DNA of 64,000 nt from Dehalococcoidia bacterium (GTDB lineage Bacteria > Chloroflexota > Dehalococcoidia > Lucifugimonadales > VXLM01): NCBI GenBank assembly GCA_034421575.1, contig DAOUKG010000023.1, forward strand, positions 40,845 to 104,844, given 5' to 3'. This document shows, one piece after another, positions 4,940 through 44,734 of this stretch (its first letter is position 1; the number at the start of each line of letters is the position of its first letter). The position numbers and the translations under genes were made by a program. The notes under the pieces are model-generated. The model searched no databases, was not told the DNA's origin, and worked only from the letters and a program-made list of their open reading frames with translations.

Positions 4940-6052
4940 CTACTCTGTCGGCCAGCCGTCGGGGATCTCGTTCGCCGCGAGCGCGGCTGAGATGGACGCG
5001 GCGGCCTCTGAGGTCACCCAGCTGCCCCATACGCCCTCGTTCCCGCTGAGCCACCAGAGAGCGGCGTCGTTCGCGGTGGCCTCTTCGTTCTCGCTCATCC
5101 ACTTGGCGACGCCCTTGTACTTGCCGATGTCGAATTCCCAGTTGCGGAGCATCGCGACCACGTCAGGCGCGCGCTCCAGCAGCGCCGGCTGCACGGCAAT
5201 GAGAATGGTGGCGTCCTCGTAGGCGCATGCCTTCGTGGTGAACCAGCATTCGTCGCTGTACGCGGGCTCTTCGAGCCTGACCAGGTCCAGCAGTAGCGGC
5301 GGGTCATTGGTGCCCCACTGGTAGCCGAGCCACGGCTCCTTTCTCTCATAGGCGCCGTAGAGATCGGCGTTCCCCGCCGCGCCGTCGCCAGGATTGACGA
5401 CGTGGACGTGGTCGGAGAGACCGTATCCCTCGATCTGCTTGGCGTTGACCTCTTCACAGGCCCAGCCGATGACGCAGGACACCAGGCGCGCCTTTCCGCC
5501 CGTCTCAGCGCTGGCGAACAGCGCCTTGAACTTGTCGTCCTTCAGGTCATCCACGCTGTCGAGATCGGGATGCTCTTCCTGGAGGTAGGCCGGGATCACG
5601 AATGCCGACTGCCAGTCCTTGCCAAGACTCTCGCCGATCGCGACGACCTCGCCTGCCGTCTGGGCTTCCATCCATGCCTCATCCTGGTTGGGCAGCCAGA
5701 TCTCCATGGTCACGTGGGTATCGCCATTCCGCAGTCCATTGAACAACGGGAGCGTGGCCCCGAAGAGAACGTCGGTCGGGTAGCCGTAGCCCTTTTCAAC
5801 GATGTACTGGGCGATTCGGTCCTGTACTTGCGCGCTCGTCCAGTTCAGGTCAGAGAAGACTATCGTCTCCTTGGGACCGGGAGTCGGGGTCACTTCGACT
5901 ATCGTCTCAACGACTTCCGGTTCAGCCGGTACGGCCGTGACCTCGACCACAACGGTCCTCTCGATGACCTCAGGGTCGGATGAGCAAGCTATTGATGCGA
6001 CCGTAACGGTCGCGAGCAAAGCTGCAACTAGAGCTAATATCTTGAGGTTCAT
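4940..6052 (-). CDS. proX: Glycine betaine/proline betaine ABC transporter substrate-binding lipoprotein
   Basis: Lipobox ...VASIAC, then a P/E/V/T-rich linker, then IVFSDLNWTSAQVQDRIAQYIVEKGYGYP...NGDTHVTMEIWLPNQ, typical of ProX/OpuAC-type binding proteins. It is the last gene of the proV-proW-proX order on the minus strand. Confidence 0.85.
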   Translation of the reverse strand: MNLKILALVAALLATVTVASIACSSDPEVIERTVVVEVTAVPAEPEVVETIVEVTPTPGPKETIVFSDLNWTSAQVQDRIAQYIVEKGYGYPTDVLFGATLPLFNGLRNGDTHVTMEIWLPNQDEAWMEAQTAGEVVAIGESLGKDWQSAFVIPAYLQEEHPDLDSVDDLKDDKFKALFASAETGGKARLVSCVIGWACEEVNAKQIEGYGLSDHVHVVNPGDGAAGNADLYGAYERKEPWLGYQWGTNDPPLLLDLVRLEEPAYSDECWFTTKACAYEDATILIAVQPALLERAPDVVAMLRNWEFDIGKYKGVAKWMSENEEATANDAALWWLSGNEGVWGSWVTSEAAASISAALAANEIPDGWPTE

Positions 6053-6131
6053 AATGCTGTTCCTTTCACTAATGGTCCTTGTTCGCTGTTCCTCCGGTGC
6101 GGTTGGCCCCTGAGGTCCGCATGACGATTGG

Positions 6132-6197
6132 CACGAAATAACCTCTGGCCAACCCGTCGTAGGGGCAACCCTCGTGGCTGCCCGTCCCCGATACCGG
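6132..6197. repeat. REP-like hairpin module between proW and proX
   Basis: gaaataacctctggccaacccgtcgtaggggcaaccctcgtggctgcccgtccccgataccgg is the same module as in 1441-1500, 4535-4600 and 62635-62700. Confidence 0.9.
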
Positions 6198-6373
6198 ACT
6201 TATAGCTCTTCGAGCCGCAAAGCATGTTGTGGCCGAGAGCCAGGGAACGTCCGACATGCCGGCAATCACAATGATTGCCCTTGCTCTATGATTTTGAGAT
6301 TCATCTCACATGCTCCTCTCGTTGTTCTCCCATCCCTCCTACTGGTGGGGCTGCTTGAAGGTTGATTGGGTAC

Positions 6374-7438
6374 CTATCCGACGCTGCGGGTATCCTCCTG
6401 TGCGCGTGCGACCGACTGCGTGAGGCGGTCGATGATGATCGCGAGGAACACGATGGAGATTCCGGCGATCGCGCCGTTGCCGGGCTGGTTCTTCTGCAAG
6501 GCGCGCAGCACGTTGTCTCCGAGACCGCCCGCGGCGACCATGCTCGCGATGGTCACCATCGCGAGGGCCATCATCGTGGTCTGATTGATGCCCGCCATGA
6601 TCGTTGGCAGGGCCATGGGAATCTGCACCTTGGTGAGCAGTTGAAACGGAGAGGAGCCGAACGAGCGCGCCGCCTCGACCACCTCGGTGGATACCTGCCT
6701 GATTCCAAGGTTCGTCAGTCGAATGGCGGGCGGCACCGCGTAGATGATGGTGGCGAATACTCCCGCCGGAGCTCCAAGACCGAAGAACAAGACCCCCGGC
6801 AGCAGGTAGACGAAGCTGGGCATGGTCTGCATCGCGTCCAGAATCGGACGAATGATGTTGTCGACGAGTCGATTGCGCGACGCGATCACCCCGATTGGCA
6901 GGCCGATGGCCACCGATATGACGACGGAAACGACCATGAGCGCGATGGTGTCGATGGTGTTCTCCCACAGACCCATGAACCCGAAGTACAGCATCGCTCC
7001 CGTCGTAAAGGCCATCAGCAGCCAGCGCCCCACGGCGTACGAGAGCATGGCGAGTCCGACGATGATGACCGGCCATGGCACCCATTTGAGCACGTCTTCG
7101 ATCTTCACAAGTGAGTAGGCGACCGCGGAGCTAAGCCCCCCAAACATCCAATCGGCCTCGCGCGTCAGCCAGTCCACTCGGTCGTCGATCCAGGTCCCGG
7201 TGACCTGTCGAACGGATTTCGAAAGCGTAACGGTGGTGCCCCCGTCTGTCGGAACCTCCGACGTCGACACCGTCGTGGGGAACCCCATCTCGGGGCCCCA
7301 TACCAGGAGGCACACCAGCAACACTGCGATTACGGCCACCAGGCCTGTCGCCCAACGGTAGAGGAGAGGCATGGCCGCCAGCCGACCACGCAGAGAAGTG
7401 GCCCCCGCTGCGGGACGAGCATCCTGAATCAGGGCCAT
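6374..7438 (-). CDS. proW: Glycine betaine/proline ABC transporter permease
   Basis: Multi-TM protein with a binding-protein-dependent transport signature region (EAARSFGSSPFQLLTKVQIPMALPTIMAGINQ). AAGGAGGA RBS before the ATG at 7438. Confidence 0.9.
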   Translation of the reverse strand: MALIQDARPAAGATSLRGRLAAMPLLYRWATGLVAVIAVLLVCLLVWGPEMGFPTTVSTSEVPTDGGTTVTLSKSVRQVTGTWIDDRVDWLTREADWMFGGLSSAVAYSLVKIEDVLKWVPWPVIIVGLAMLSYAVGRWLLMAFTTGAMLYFGFMGLWENTIDTIALMVVSVVISVAIGLPIGVIASRNRLVDNIIRPILDAMQTMPSFVYLLPGVLFFGLGAPAGVFATIIYAVPPAIRLTNLGIRQVSTEVVEAARSFGSSPFQLLTKVQIPMALPTIMAGINQTTMMALAMVTIASMVAAGGLGDNVLRALQKNQPGNGAIAGISIVFLAIIIDRLTQSVARAQEDTRSVG

Positions 7439-32338: not shown

Positions 32339-32728
32339 ATGGAAGGCAACTCAGGAAAATACCTGTCAATAAAAGAAGCGTCCGTGGCCTACGAGGTCAG
32401 CCGGACGAAGATCCACCGGCTCGTCAAGAGCGGGGCCGTCCGCTCCTCCAGGGACCCGCGTGACGATAGAATTACCCTGGTGAGAGTTGACGACCTCGAC
32501 AGCCGGTTCCGTGGAGATACCGTCATGGACACATATAGCGCGGCGTACACCGGCGTTGCGACCGCTGACAGACTCAACAGGATGAACGCCATCCGTGCGA
32601 GCGGCAGTGTGGCCGGGACCGGGAGCGACAGCACCGACATACTTCGCGCCCAGAGAGAGGCCCGCAGCCGGGAGCTTGACATGCGCTCGGCGGGATCAGA
32701 CGCCGTCGCAGACGAGTACACGCGGTGA
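32339..32728 (+). CDS. HTH (excisionase/MerR-like) DNA-binding protein, putative antitoxin of the downstream PIN toxin
   Basis: LSIKEASVAYEVSRTKIHRLVKSGAV helix-turn-helix. Its stop overlaps the GTG start of the PIN gene (GTGA at 32725-32728). Confidence 0.6.
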   Translation: MEGNSGKYLSIKEASVAYEVSRTKIHRLVKSGAVRSSRDPRDDRITLVRVDDLDSRFRGDTVMDTYSAAYTGVATADRLNRMNAIRASGSVAGTGSDSTDILRAQREARSRELDMRSAGSDAVADEYTR

Positions 32729-33159
32729 CCGTCGTCGTCGATGCCAACATCGCGGTGAAATGGGTCGCTGAGGAACTCGACAGCGCGGAGGCCGTGTCGT
32801 TATACCGTGACTGGGCGGAGCGGGCCGAGCTGCTCATAGCGCCCCCGATCTTCCGGCCTGAGGTCACGAACGTGCTGTACCAGAAGATCCGGCGCGGAGA
32901 GCTTGGTCTTGGCGCAGCGATCGAGGCGATGGACGCGATCTACGATGCCGTATCCATTCAAGAGCCTGCCGGTCTCTACACCGACGCGCTGTCGATAGCG
33001 CAGGCCATAGACGTGGGGGCAACCTACGACCCGCTCTACCTCGCACTGGCAGAGGCTGAACGGTGCGACCTCTGGACGGCGGACAGGCGGTTCGTCCGGG
33101 CGGTGGGATACCGGTCATCACGTGTCCGCTGGCTTGGCGAACTGTCGATGGAACCATAA
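32725..33159 (+). CDS. vapC: PIN-domain ribonuclease toxin (VapC family)
   Basis: VVVDANIAVKW (first acidic residue), E in RPEVTNVL, then TYDPLYLALAE and LWTADRRF. This is the canonical PIN acidic quartet spacing. Confidence 0.8.
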   Translation: MTVVVDANIAVKWVAEELDSAEAVSLYRDWAERAELLIAPPIFRPEVTNVLYQKIRRGELGLGAAIEAMDAIYDAVSIQEPAGLYTDALSIAQAIDVGATYDPLYLALAEAERCDLWTADRRFVRAVGYRSSRVRWLGELSMEP

Positions 33160-33168
33160 GGAGCACAC

Positions 33169-38344: not shown

Positions 38345-38785
38345 GCACCCTTCGACAAGCTCAGAGCTTGCCCCGTACCTGATACGGGGGTGAACGGGAT
38401 AGTCAAAATACGTTCGTGGTGAGCTTGTCGAACCACGAAGAGCAGGTCTAACAAGACAACCAATTACTGTAAGGGACTTGCGAAACGGGACACTAGGACG
38501 GCTCACACCCAACCGCCCTAGACGACACCCCCGATATCTCCCTCCGTAACTATTCAGACTTCGTGAGAGCGCACAACGCACACTACCACCGCCATACCCG
38601 CGAAGGGAGTCCTTTGCACAACCTTCGTCATTCCCGCGAAGGCGGGAATCCAGAGACGTCTGCAAAGCTGGGAGATGCCCACACACTAACAATCTCTCAG
38701 CGGGAGAGGGGTTACGCAAATCTCTCCGAAGGCGGGTATCCATAGGGGTGAGGAGTGTTCACCCCCATCAATTCTGAGCAAAGGC
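38345..38785. repeat. REP-like module array
   Basis: cccttcgacaagctcagagcttgccccgtacctgatacgggggtgaacggg followed by cgttcgtggtgagcttgtcgaaccacgaa. The same two modules occur in the opposite order at 43306-43399. There is also gtcattcccgcgaaggcgggaatccag and a gtgttcaccccc...tctgagc module. Confidence 0.9.
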
Positions 38786-40553: not shown

Positions 40554-40619
40554 GGGGTGTTATATCATCATGGGTTGGAACAAGATAATTGAGCTAAACA
40601 ACTCTGTTGGAGTTAGATC

Positions 40620-41312
40620 ATGACGCAGAGCGTCAACACCAAGCGCATTGTGTGCCTCGCTAACTCACGCAAAAGGGGTGGTCGCTGTATCGCTGGCAAA
40701 GAAATTCTGGAGGACGGTCGTCCTGGCGGATGGGTTCGGCCTGTGAGTGACCGAGAAAATGAGGGCGTGAAGGAATGCGAACGACAGTATGGGGACGGAA
40801 GTGAGCCTAGAGTCCTTGATGTCGTTGACGTGCCAGTTCTAAGGCCGATGCCTAAGGATTACCAACATGAAAACTGGCAACTTAACCCGAAACGCCGTTG
40901 GGTTAAAGTCGGCTGTGTTGATCAGAATGTTCTATCGCAGTGTGTCGATACAGATGAGACACTTTGGACTAATGGATATAGCACTATCAATGGGTTGAAT
41001 GATCAGATTCCGCTTCTTGCCGCCAAATCTCTTAAGAGCTCGTTACGACTCATCAGGGTTGACAGGATGAAGTTATCAGTCTTTCAACCCGGTAAGAATT
41101 TTGGAGACTATAGACGGCGTGTGCAGGGTCGTTTTCGTTATAGGGGAACTGATTACTGGCTATGGGTTACGGATTCTAATTACGAAGGGCAGTACTTGCA
41201 GCGACCCAACGGTAGTTATCCGATTGGCGGGTGCTTTCTTACCGTCAGTCTTGGTGGGTCTCATAGGGATAATAACTCTTATAAACTTGTCGCCGCTATC
41301 ATTAGACCATGA
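40620..41312 (+). CDS. Hypothetical protein (230 aa), first gene of the low-GC three-gene island
   Basis: ATG 7 nt after GGAG. N-terminal motif RIVCLANSRKRGGRCIAGKE...GGWVRPVS, then two beta-rich halves. I cannot assign it to a named family from memory. GC is clearly lower than in the flanks. Confidence 0.7.
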   Translation: MTQSVNTKRIVCLANSRKRGGRCIAGKEILEDGRPGGWVRPVSDRENEGVKECERQYGDGSEPRVLDVVDVPVLRPMPKDYQHENWQLNPKRRWVKVGCVDQNVLSQCVDTDETLWTNGYSTINGLNDQIPLLAAKSLKSSLRLIRVDRMKLSVFQPGKNFGDYRRRVQGRFRYRGTDYWLWVTDSNYEGQYLQRPNGSYPIGGCFLTVSLGGSHRDNNSYKLVAAIIRP

Positions 41313-41325
41313 TAGAGGAGCATCA

Positions 41326-41961
41326 TTGAGCTTCACGCAGTATCCAGTGCTTACGATCGGCCATTCAAATCATTCTCCAGAGATGTTCTTAGAATTATTG
41401 TCTCGGCACGACGTAAGTGAAGTAGTGGACGTTCGATCGTCGCCACAAAGCCGCTATACTCCCCAGTTTAACTATAATATCCTGACCGAAATACTGGACG
41501 AAGTTGGAATCGGCTATGTGTTTTTGGGCGGAGAACTTGGCGGTAGACCGGTGGACCGCTCGTGCTACGATGACGAAGGGCGCGTCCTGTACGACCGTCT
41601 AGCAGACACGGATTTGTTCAATGATGGCATCGGACGGCTAATACGGGAAGCCGATGAATGCCGTATGGCCTTGATGTGTACTGAGAATGAACCGCTAATT
41701 TGCCACCGCGCGTTGCTGATCGCCAAGACGCTCGCAGAACGCGACGTTGCAGTTGAGCACATCCTGGCCGATGGCAGCCTTGAAAAGCACGCCATCACTA
41801 TGGGTCGACTGTTGGATAGTTTCAATTTACCGCACAACGGCGACCTGTTTCGCTCACCAGATGAGGTGCTCGCAGATGCGATAGCCCGACAGGCGAAGAA
41901 AATAGCGTATGTGGGTAACAGACAACCCGCTTACAAAGAAGATTGGGAGAATGTCCATTGA
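41326..41961 (+). CDS. DUF488 domain protein (long form with ~60-aa C-terminal extension)
   Basis: TTG start 5 nt after GAGGAG and 13 nt after the upstream stop. VLTIGHSNHS...VVDVRSSPQSRYTPQFN...LMCTENEPLICHRALL is the DUF488 signature (TIGHS ... C-x-E-x5-CHR). Confidence 0.8.
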   Translation: MSFTQYPVLTIGHSNHSPEMFLELLSRHDVSEVVDVRSSPQSRYTPQFNYNILTEILDEVGIGYVFLGGELGGRPVDRSCYDDEGRVLYDRLADTDLFNDGIGRLIREADECRMALMCTENEPLICHRALLIAKTLAERDVAVEHILADGSLEKHAITMGRLLDSFNLPHNGDLFRSPDEVLADAIARQAKKIAYVGNRQPAYKEDWENVH

Positions 41962-42395
41962 GAGTGTACACAATCGGGTTCACTAAAATATCGGCCTCAG
42001 ATTTCTTCGAAATATTACGGGAGTCAGGTGCTAAACGTCTAGTGGATGTCCGACTGAACAATGTTTCACAGTTGGCCGGCTTTGCTAAAAGAGACGATCT
42101 TGAGTACTTTCTCCAAAAACTCTCCCGGATGAAATACATTCACATGCCGGAATTAGCACCTACAAAGGAGATGCTGGACGCTTACCGGAATGATCATCGC
42201 GACTGGGGCATTTACGAGCGTGAGTTCATCGACCTAATGAATCAGCGTCGAATTGAGAAGATGGGGATAAAGAGAATCATTTCCAACAGCTGCCTGCTGT
42301 GTAGCGAGGATAAACCCGACAATTGTCATCGCCGGCTGGTCGCAGAGTATCTAAACAGATATTGGGGTGATATTGAAATCGTACACTTGGGCTGA
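41958..42395 (+). CDS. DUF488 domain protein (second, divergent subfamily)
   Basis: The TTG start overlaps the upstream TGA (TTGA at 41958-41961), with GGGAGA 8 nt upstream. RVYTIGFTKISASDFFEILRESGAKRLVDVRLNNVSQLAGFAKRDDLEYFL...CLLCSEDKPDNCHRRLVAEYL. Confidence 0.8.
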   Translation: MRVYTIGFTKISASDFFEILRESGAKRLVDVRLNNVSQLAGFAKRDDLEYFLQKLSRMKYIHMPELAPTKEMLDAYRNDHRDWGIYEREFIDLMNQRRIEKMGIKRIISNSCLLCSEDKPDNCHRRLVAEYLNRYWGDIEIVHLG

Positions 42396-42423
42396 TTTAC
42401 CAAATTCGCCCTCGTGCCACCCC

Positions 42424-42681
42424 TCACTTCGGCAACCCGCGCTCGTCGTATAGCAAATCGCCGTGATCAACAGCCGGTGGCCCATCACGCAACATCCTAG
42501 CCGTACGCTCACTGATAGCCCGCATCGCCTTTAGGCGCTCTTCCACAGTGCGCTCACGTCTCACCCGCTCCAACCGCTCCCTGAGCGCGACAGTGATCGC
42601 ATCCGTAACCGTCTCGCCGGTAAGATTTGCTAGCTCGTCAGCCAGCCGTATGGTCTCTTGGTCTTCGATTTTGAGGCTCAC
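42424..42681 (-). CDS. vapB: VapB-family antitoxin (Rv0623/PSK-transcription-factor-like), with no cognate toxin gene downstream
   Basis: GTG start at 42681. SLKIEDQETIRLADELANLTGETVTDAITVALRERLERV...LLYDERGLPK parallels M. tuberculosis VapB30 as I remember it (...GETLTEAV..ALRERL...YDERGLPA). The longer ORF to 42813 is rejected. Confidence 0.85.
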   Translation of the reverse strand: MSLKIEDQETIRLADELANLTGETVTDAITVALRERLERVRRERTVEERLKAMRAISERTARMLRDGPPAVDHGDLLYDERGLPK

Positions 42682-43305: not shown

Positions 43306-43399
43306 CCGTTCGTGGTGAGCTTGTCGAACCATGAACGTCCCCGCACGCCCTTCGACAGGCTCAGAGCTTGCCCCGTACTTGATACGGGGGTGAACGGGA
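43306..43399. repeat. REP-like modules (order reversed relative to 38345-38443)
   Basis: cgttcgtggtgagcttgtcgaaccatgaacg ... cccttcgacaggctcagagcttgccccgtacttgatacgggggtgaacggg. Confidence 0.9.
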
Positions 43400-44466: not shown

Positions 44467-44734
44467 CCCCTCTCCCGTCGTGGGCTGACAGGGGTAGGTA
44501 AAACGGATTTTAGCTACGATCCGGCCACCACAACACTGTCATTCCGATCGTAGCGAAGCGGAGAGAGGAATCTAAAGTGTTCATCCTTCAAACCAAGCCC
44601 TGCACTCTGAAACATCCATGGCGATGGCGTAGCATTTTAGATTCCTCGCTCCGCTCGGAATGACAGTGTTATGGTGGCCGGATCGTAGCTAAAATCCGTT
44701 TTACCTACCCCTGTCAGCCCCCGCCGGGGGAGAG
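44467..44734. repeat. ~268-bp near-perfect palindromic element
   Basis: The left arm ctgacaggggtaggtaaaacggattttagctacgatccggccaccacaacactgtcattccg (44484-44545) is the reverse complement of 44656-44717 with one mismatch. The arms continue imperfectly inward (cgaagcggagagaggaatctaaa / tttagattcctcgctccgctc) around a ~55-nt centre. Confidence 0.92.

Follow-up and report, generated by a model that had tools for sequence, protein, structure and literature searches.

What is a low-GC cassette of three co-directional genes, set between moaA and an orphan vapB-like gene, doing in the genome of a Dehalococcoidia bacterium? The question was raised by a sequence-only reading of a 64,000-nucleotide (nt) stretch of that genome (contig DAOUKG010000023.1, positions 40,845 to 104,844; hereafter the window), which took the segment 40554-42423 for an undescribed system with a possible role in conflict or defence.

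When the products of the three genes (g1, g2 and g3; Table 1) were compared with PADLOC-DB, near full-length matches to PDC-M45A, PDC-M45B and PDC-M45C were obtained (E-values 2.2e-86, 4.8e-74 and 9.7e-70, respectively). The match of g1 covers residues 6-229 and profile positions 3-224 of 230, and that of g3 profile positions 1-144 of 145. The genes are adjacent and co-directional on the + strand in the order A, B, C, which is the arrangement of PDC-M45. By these matches the cassette is a fresh copy of an already catalogued candidate anti-phage system, and the claim of an undescribed one had to be withdrawn. In the supplementary data of Payne et al. 2024 (bioRxiv 10.1101/2024.01.29.577857) it appears as CAS_00153, a three-family cassette with the remark 'Assign as candidate PDC-M45'. 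That study started from genes lying inside BREX, DISARM and type I restriction-modification systems and arrived at 145 phage defence candidate (PDC) cassettes, which it calls untested, 'guilt-by-embedding' candidates.

We give a probability of about 0.55 to the reading that, in this copy of PDC-M45, the product of g1 (DuOB) recognises nucleic acid and the two DUF488 proteins encoded by g2 and g3 act as phosphotransfer effectors that disable an invader.

The three products

The product of g1, which the sequence-only reading could place in no named family, belongs to Pfam family PF22557, DuOB ('Dual OB-containing domain'; 229.8 bits with a cut-off of 27, E-value 4.6e-68), and its match spans profile positions 1-210 of 210. 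The AlphaFold2 model (predicted local distance difference test, pLDDT, 90.7) consists nearly entirely of beta-strands in two halves. When the model was compared with the PDB using Foldseek, the top matches were all weak (best E-value 0.012, range 0.012-0.1; template modelling (TM) scores 0.27-0.36) and mostly fell on nucleic-acid binders with tandem oligonucleotide/oligosaccharide-binding (OB) folds. These were DNA-binding domains A and B of RPA70 on single-stranded DNA (ssDNA), CST, the N-terminal domain of BrxL, and the HIN-200 domains of p202, MNDA, IFI16 and AIM2. Viral single-stranded DNA-binding protein and LEF-3 were among the weak matches in BFVD. DuOB is proposed as a putative nucleic-acid-binding sensor or specificity subunit. 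Its first OB half carries invariant polar residues (S16, R17, R40, R45, E54, D67, E84 and N85) and two invariant cysteines (C12 and C23).

Both g2 and g3 encode members of Pfam family PF04343 (DUF488; cut-off 22.2), with 70.8 bits and an E-value of 2e-19 for g2, and 84.9 bits and an E-value of 8.5e-24 for g3. The g3 product also passes PF22751, DUF488-N3a ('Active DUF488-N3 subclade'; 42 bits, cut-off 27), in a match limited to profile positions 37-116 of 118. The g2 product matched the general DUF488 model only, and no subclade model was found for it even at E-values up to 10. The Pfam names DuOB and DUF488-N3a presumably stem from work by Burroughs and Aravind in 2023 on the rhodanese-phosphatase superfamily, which reportedly predicts novel DNA-end processing in virus-host conflict. 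No NCBIfam model matched g1, g2 or g3, and a PDB sequence search gave no homologue for any of them; two parvalbumin matches to g3 (E-values 0.3-0.95) were dismissed as chance.

The DUF488 motifs quoted in the sequence-only reading are present and invariant across the family. In the g2 product they are TIGHSNH, DVRSSP and C118-x-E120-x5-C126-H127-R128, followed by a helical C-terminal extension of ~70 amino acids (aa). Residues G12, H13, S14, N15, H16, D35 and R37 of this protein are invariant in 40 homologues, as are C118, E120, C126, H127 and R128 of the catalytic motif, and these residues are at least 97% conserved over 75 loci. The g3 product carries TIGFT, DVR, LAP and C-S-E-x5-C-H-R-R-L, the last of which is likewise at least 97% conserved over the 75 loci. 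The N-terminal T-I-G and D-V-R motifs are common to both paralogues, and their cores are 29% identical. As both keep the invariant C-x-E-x5-C-H-R, neither looks like an inactivated partner. The constant pair of distinct paralogues, both active as judged by motif, points to a heterodimer or to chemistry in two successive steps.

The AlphaFold2 model of g2 (pLDDT 81) has an alternating beta/alpha core. Its Foldseek matches were weak and included the cysteine-phosphatase folds of Cdc14, PRL-3, Siw14 and SsoPTP, the baculovirus RNA 5'-phosphatase (1yn9) and the DUF442 phosphatase (3gxh; probability 0.99, E-value 0.004, TM 0.38 by query and 0.50 by target). Equally weak matches fell on signal recognition particle GTPases and CobU, and on unrelated Rossmann-like and P-loop folds.

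A foreign cassette at a variable site

The tight coupling of the three genes was borne out in every detail that had been reported, from coordinates and start codons to spacing. Thirteen nucleotides separate g1 from g2, GAGGAG stands 6 nt before the TTG start of g2, and g2 and g3 overlap by 4 nt, where the g3 start and the g2 TGA read ATTGA. Identical g1 and g2 were obtained in independent gene calls on the source scaffold (248-kb metagenome scaffold ENA ERZ23495174, scaffold_152) and on a Logan contig. The g3 product is 145 aa in the Logan contig call too, and the source-scaffold call gives a shorter open reading frame (ORF) of 88 aa.

The low GC content was confirmed as well. The segment 40554-42423 has 48.8% GC, compared with a window mean of 60.7% (standard deviation 2.8%, 1.85-kb windows), and is the minimum among all 1.85-kb windows of the stretch (0.08th percentile). 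GC content at third codon positions (GC3) is 0.47, 0.55 and 0.53 in g1, g2 and g3, respectively, and 0.82-0.92 in six flanking genes (fbp, fba, rdgB, moaA, ndt and DUF1761). No sigma-70-like promoter was scored upstream of g1 on the + strand, and the counts in the promoter and terminator scan equalled the shuffled expectation (3 versus 2.3 and 3 versus 2.4). The cassette is foreign in composition and was acquired horizontally. The idea of a self-contained, horizontally acquired module thus held, on the foreign GC3 and on the joint occurrence of the three families described below.

Four species-level relatives share fbp-fba-rdgB-moaA with the window at 90-96% protein identity. In two of them (L009 and L090) the trio occupies the same site. 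The third (L092, Dehalococcoidia metagenome-assembled genome OY762443) has a different low-GC insert there (L092:7030-10310, 3.3 kb, GC 50-56%), with four minus-strand ORFs of 318, 430, 155 and 80 aa that gave no Pfam or PADLOC match; this insert may itself be an accessory or defence cassette that awaits characterisation. Different genes follow moaA in the fourth (L091). The moaA|vapB site is therefore a variable hotspot. Close relatives had been named as the place to look for an empty site, and the comparison gave the trio in two of four genomes, another insert in one and different genes in one.

At the left boundary, all five genomes align through the moaA stop codon and a following GGGG. 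Beyond this point the window, L009 and L090 remain homologous, and L091 and L092 diverge. The right boundary is the stop codon of the VapB-like gene, giving a variable segment of ~40558-42423, nearly the span stated in the sequence-only reading. The VapB-like gene, called as 85 aa on the Logan contig, is considered to be flank because its 3' part is also kept in L092, next to the other insert. Compared with its syntenic counterparts in L009 and L090, the window copy reaches just 46-47% identity, against 90-96% for the flanks. Further downstream, ndt (nucleoside 2-deoxyribosyltransferase) is native, with a GC3 of 0.91 and 94% identity in a relative. We also considered ndt and vapB as members of the system and rejected both as conserved native flank. 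The flanking genes moaA, vapB-like and ndt were identified correctly by the sequence-only reading. Its argument from a location among toxin-antitoxin remnants and beside a nucleoside enzyme carries little weight, vapB and ndt being native flank and the surroundings housekeeping.

The cassette sits where the partner VapC toxin gene would be expected. This position, beside an orphan vapB, and the foreign composition are what one would look for in a selfish, toxin-antitoxin-like addiction cassette, in which one DUF488 protein is the toxin, another component neutralises it, and maintenance is by post-segregational killing. A distant variant from Acinetobacter, whose 10-kb plasmid has a RelE/ParE toxin gene nearby, points the same way. 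Against it, searches of Pfam, NCBIfam and PADLOC gave no toxin or antitoxin family for any of the three products, both DUF488 proteins keep all residues of the catalytic motif so that neither resembles an inactivated neutraliser, carriage on plasmids is rare (5 of 72,556 records), and the orphan vapB is a conserved flank that also stands beside a different insert. We regard addiction as very improbable.

Several other elements were observed in the window. A REP/MITE-like element of 52 nt occurs twice in direct orientation (38348-38399 and 43348-43399; 96% identical, exactly 5000 nt apart) and brackets rdgB-moaA-trio-vapB-ndt. The two copies were tried as ends of the cassette and rejected: they bracket a larger 5-kb block, and the element is partly dispersed through the window. 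A 25-nt hairpin, CGTCATTCCCGCGAANGCGGGAATC, is present in 8 copies (1408, 4608, 24779, 24840, 31328, 38626, 43456 and 43517), and positions 44470-44732 hold a large inverted repeat. About 8 kb upstream of the cassette, an apparently intact pair of a 129-aa gene and a weak-PIN gene was seen (~32340-33160, mapped from L088:1720-2540). A search for flanking direct repeats or att sites gave only short, chance-level repeats, and no tRNA genes or Rfam matches were found in the window.

Table 1 Positions of the cassette genes and right flank in the window, and trio loci of two special classes
Feature	Position	Strand	Remarks
Leader (left junction)	40558..40619	+	AT-rich, upstream of g1; part of the cassette, not of the moaA flank
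Gene 1 (g1)	40620..41312	+	ATG start, 230 aa, DuOB, PADLOC PDC-M45A
Gene 2 (g2)	41326..41961	+	TTG start, 211 aa, long DUF488 paralogue, PDC-M45B
Gene 3 (g3)	41958..42395	+	TTG start, 145 aa, short DUF488 paralogue, PDC-M45C
vapB-like orphan (PSK_trans_fac)	42424..42681	-	PF07704, E 6.2e-22; flank, not part of the system
Hma-embedded trio, L021			Latescibacterota
Hma-embedded trio, L042			Acidobacteriota
Hma-embedded trio, L059			Thiobacillus
Hma-embedded trio, L038			Spirochaetia
Hma-embedded trio, L053 and L072			'delta' proteobacteria
Tandem DuOB, L019, L024, L025, L033, L036, L043 and L045	~5160-6670 in each		Chloroflexota

Distribution, defence neighbours and turnover of DuOB

DuOB proteins form >3000 clusters at 90% identity and 3723 at 50%, nearly all of them standalone proteins of 220-235 aa. 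When genomes of 185,579 species were searched with two degenerate peptide patterns, at least 564 stretches encoding a DuOB relative were found, a count that is a lower bound. The distribution is patchy, and carriers include Chloroflexota, Binatia, Latescibacterota, Acidobacteriota, Nitrospirota, Thermodesulfobacteriota and Spirochaetia as well as Alpha-, Gamma- and 'Delta'-proteobacteria. Identity of their DuOB proteins to that of the window varies little (53-65%), and the mean pairwise identity of the three proteins across phyla is 53-66%.

Among 79 DuOB loci that were fetched for a census, 75 have DuOB, a g2-type DUF488 and a g3-type DUF488 in this order on one strand. Two near-duplicates with an inverted DUF488 pair, one locus without DUF488 and one cut by a contig end are the exceptions. 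The joint occurrence of g1 homologues with tandem DUF488 genes across many phyla, which had been proposed as a check, was thus found. Natural single-chain fusions of DuOB and DUF488 exist in two independent representatives (P0290, 449 aa; P0386, 443 aa), so physical coupling of the two is supported and a DuOB-DUF488 complex is probable. As side observations, DuOB stands alone at L073:6001-6663, with no DUF488 nearby; at L050 and L054:6676-7618 the two DUF488 genes that come after it are both short (145 aa) and lie on the other strand; and several other DuOB proteins have N-terminal extensions of ~100 aa, of which that of P0091 resembles a helix-turn-helix/HigA-type region.

In 67 of 73 loci the trio has a lower GC content than the DNA around it (mean -4.5 points, Wilcoxon p = 3e-12), and its GC content still correlates with host GC (r = 0.77), as would be expected if the trio had been transferred horizontally time and again and had then partly ameliorated. 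No match was found in 50,697 phage records, and the plasmid records that carry the cassette all show ≤36% identity. Variants occur on the small Acinetobacter baumannii plasmid NZ_CP021348 and on the Acinetobacter pittii plasmid NZ_CP139284 (L171:5016-6704), where DuOB (28% identity to that of the window; PF22557 E-value 1.6e-47) and a DUF488 are accompanied by an mSLOG-DUF4326 fusion.

The replacement of the second DUF488 by this fusion in the Acinetobacter plasmid variant raises another explanation, namely that the DUF488 pair processes phosphates on nucleotide signals derived from NAD+ or ADP-ribose or on other such signals, or on ADP-ribosylated nucleic acid. DuOB would then regulate or target the pair, and the cassette would still be conflict-related, acting through metabolite or signal chemistry. 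DUF4326 is a rhodanese-phosphatase relative and is proposed in PMC9503650, by the group that later analysed the superfamily, to process terminal ribose phosphates in ADP-ribose or its breakdown products; archaeal ParB-CTPase-DUF488 fusions that bind CTP also speak for small-molecule chemistry. The canonical trio, however, has no SLOG, Macro, NADAR, TIR or Sir2 partner and encodes no signal-generating enzyme, and its obligatory partner is a tandem-OB protein whose nearest, weak structural matches bind DNA or RNA. We consider this explanation unlikely.

To characterise the neighbourhoods, 146 immediate neighbours of 76 loci were scanned, followed by individual proteins and tblastn per locus. In six loci (Table 1) the methylase gene HmaB of the helicase-methylase-ATPase (Hma) system precedes the trio and the ATPase gene HmaC follows it, all in the same direction, with some Hma genes fragmented. 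At the protein level, matches at E = 0 were obtained for both HmaB and HmaC in L021, L042 and L059, for HmaB in L072 and for HmaC in L038. Partial Hma neighbours in L051, L068 and L074 bring Hma adjacency to 9 of 79 loci. Since Hma is absent in ~88% of loci (70/79), we concluded that the trio stands by itself as a module and is not a subunit of Hma. A type I HsdR gene lies directly downstream of the trio in L060, and other immediate neighbours include DpdJ, BrxH, DruE, SngC, NsnB, HEPN_Swt1 and Schlafen/AlbA_2 proteins.

The counts for mad3, mad8, AriA and ATPase-Toprim families (MADS, PARIS, Gabija-like) were at least partly inflated and were not taken as defence evidence. An ordinary ABC-transporter ATPase used as control (L091:7639-8607) matched mad3 at an E-value of 9e-32 and also matched mad8, AriA and GajA; censuses made with PADLOC hidden Markov models only therefore overcount the mad3, mad8, AriA and GajA families.

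The census independently confirms embedding in Hma and adjacency to type I restriction, and it supports a conflict role for the trio, in agreement with the conclusions of two earlier computational studies. The idea of a conflict or defence system stands in so far as several copies lie within known defence systems; it is not matched by most loci, which lie among housekeeping genes.

A comparison of the window with its two trio-bearing relatives shows where the cassette changes. Nucleotide identity between the window and L090 is ~0.85-0.96 in the housekeeping flanks and 0.92-0.98 in g3, and falls to 0.49-0.57 in the C-terminal half of g1. The same pattern was observed in all three pairings of the window, L009 and L090 (0.46-0.57 for the C-terminal half of g1). 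At the protein level, g1 of the window is 53% identical to that of L090 and 65% to that of L009, g2 is 80% and 82-83% identical, and g3, the most conserved component, 99% and 94%. Over 75 loci, the pairwise identities of g2 and g3 correlate with r = 0.78, and those of g1 with either one at 0.46-0.50. In close pairs (g3 at least 85% identical, n = 29) the g1 proteins are mostly 53-79% identical. Variability of DuOB peaks at residues 91-115 and 131-140, that is, in the inter-barrel region and at the start of the second barrel.

This pattern, a fast, mosaic turnover of DuOB beside slow evolution of the DUF488 pair, resembles what allele exchange or diversification would produce in a putative recognition subunit. 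Seven Chloroflexota loci (Table 1) carry tandem DuOB duplicates, 55-61% identical to each other, before the DUF488 pair, which suggests an expanded recognition repertoire.

These results also bear on another possibility, that the cassette plays no part in immunity and is a mobile module for repairing nucleic acids or healing their ends, which handles damaged RNA or DNA ends and spreads because it is useful under stress. The housekeeping genes around most loci, the window included, would suit such a module, as would the 53-66% mean identity across phyla, which is unusual for fast-evolving immune effectors, and the presence of RNA 5'-phosphatases (1yn9) among enzymes with the cysteine-phosphatase fold. 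It accounts poorly for the embedding between HmaB and HmaC and the adjacency to type I HsdR in unrelated phyla, for the patchy distribution, for a hotspot site with alternative cargo, and for allele-swapped DuOB divergence in near-identical backgrounds and the tandem DuOB of some loci. A role confined to repair is thus improbable in our view.

Proposed mechanism and comparison with known systems

In the preferred reading, with DuOB as recognition component and the DUF488 pair as effectors, the two OB barrels of DuOB would detect a nucleic-acid feature that marks an invader or damage, for instance single-stranded DNA or RNA or a particular end, and DuOB would act as the specificity subunit. It would recruit or activate both DUF488 proteins, probably in one complex. 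The latter are predicted to be enzymes of the rhodanese-phosphatase type that transfer phosphate through a cysteine and need no metal. Their targets would be phosphate-bearing termini of ribose or nucleic acid, from which 5', 3' or 2',3'-cyclic phosphates might, for example, be removed or transferred; with its termini so altered, the invader would no longer be replicated, ligated or translated. A more specific form of the proposal, an immune system in which terminus editing by DUF488 is a chemistry new to defence and DuOB a modular, rapidly exchanged specificity subunit, is put forward only tentatively, and we think it may well prove wrong.

Several points weigh against the preferred reading. 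A literature search for PDC-M45, DuOB and DUF488 gave no experiment on defence or activity. Most loci, including that of the window, lie among housekeeping genes and not in defence islands. The structural matches are all weak (E-values of at least 0.0017, query-normalised TM of at most 0.45), so that it is mainly the Pfam family definitions that carry the assignments to OB and phosphatase folds. The DUF488 motif is C-x-E-x5-C-H-R and not the canonical C-x5-R phosphatase loop. The invariant polar residues of DuOB could mean that it is possibly an enzyme itself and not a passive binder. Finally, the divergence of g1 could stem from recombination without an arms race.

DUF488 is a very large family, for which no experimentally defined function was found in the literature, and the DUF488-DUF488-tandem-OB system is among the clearest handles on its function. 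The window adds a comparison set of near-identical genomes that have the cassette, alternative cargo or different genes at one site, and it adds evidence for DuOB as the fast-changing component. We know of no earlier report of the moaA/vapB hotspot with alternative cargo, of DuOB genes turning over in mosaic fashion or duplicated in tandem, or of the embedding in Hma. The value of these results lies in prioritisation and not in discovery: hotspot, DuOB turnover and Hma embedding sharpen the hypotheses and leave the category of the system unchanged.

When the cassette is set beside known systems, no structural difference from the catalogued PDC-M45 is observed. The rationale for PDC-M45 is embedding in known defence systems, whereas the window copy lies in a housekeeping neighbourhood. 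Likewise, the trio of some loci is embedded in the Hma system, whereas the flanks in the window are moaA and vapB/ndt, with no Hma genes there. The predicted DuOB/DUF488-N3 conflict system (RapZ-C-DUF488-DUF4326 clade) shares with the window a full-length DuOB and, in g3, a protein that passes PF22751. It differs in that g2 has no match to an N3 model and both paralogues of the window look catalytically competent from their motifs.

Among the components, DuOB would, by weak structural matches (Foldseek E-values of at least 0.012), share two consecutive beta-barrels with the tandem-OB binders (RPA70, HIN-200, CST and BrxL). It has no sequence similarity to them, and its dense set of invariant polar residues with two invariant cysteines is atypical for generic ssDNA binders. 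The g2 protein shares with cysteine phosphatases of the protein tyrosine phosphatase fold (1yn9, Siw14 and 3gxh) the predicted beta/alpha fold and a cysteine and arginine after the central strand; the TM values are 0.4-0.5 by PDB chain and 0.3-0.4 by query, and the motif differs. If the more specific form of the proposal, with DuOB rapidly exchanged, is true, DuOB would be comparable to HsdS of type I restriction systems as a swappable recognition module.

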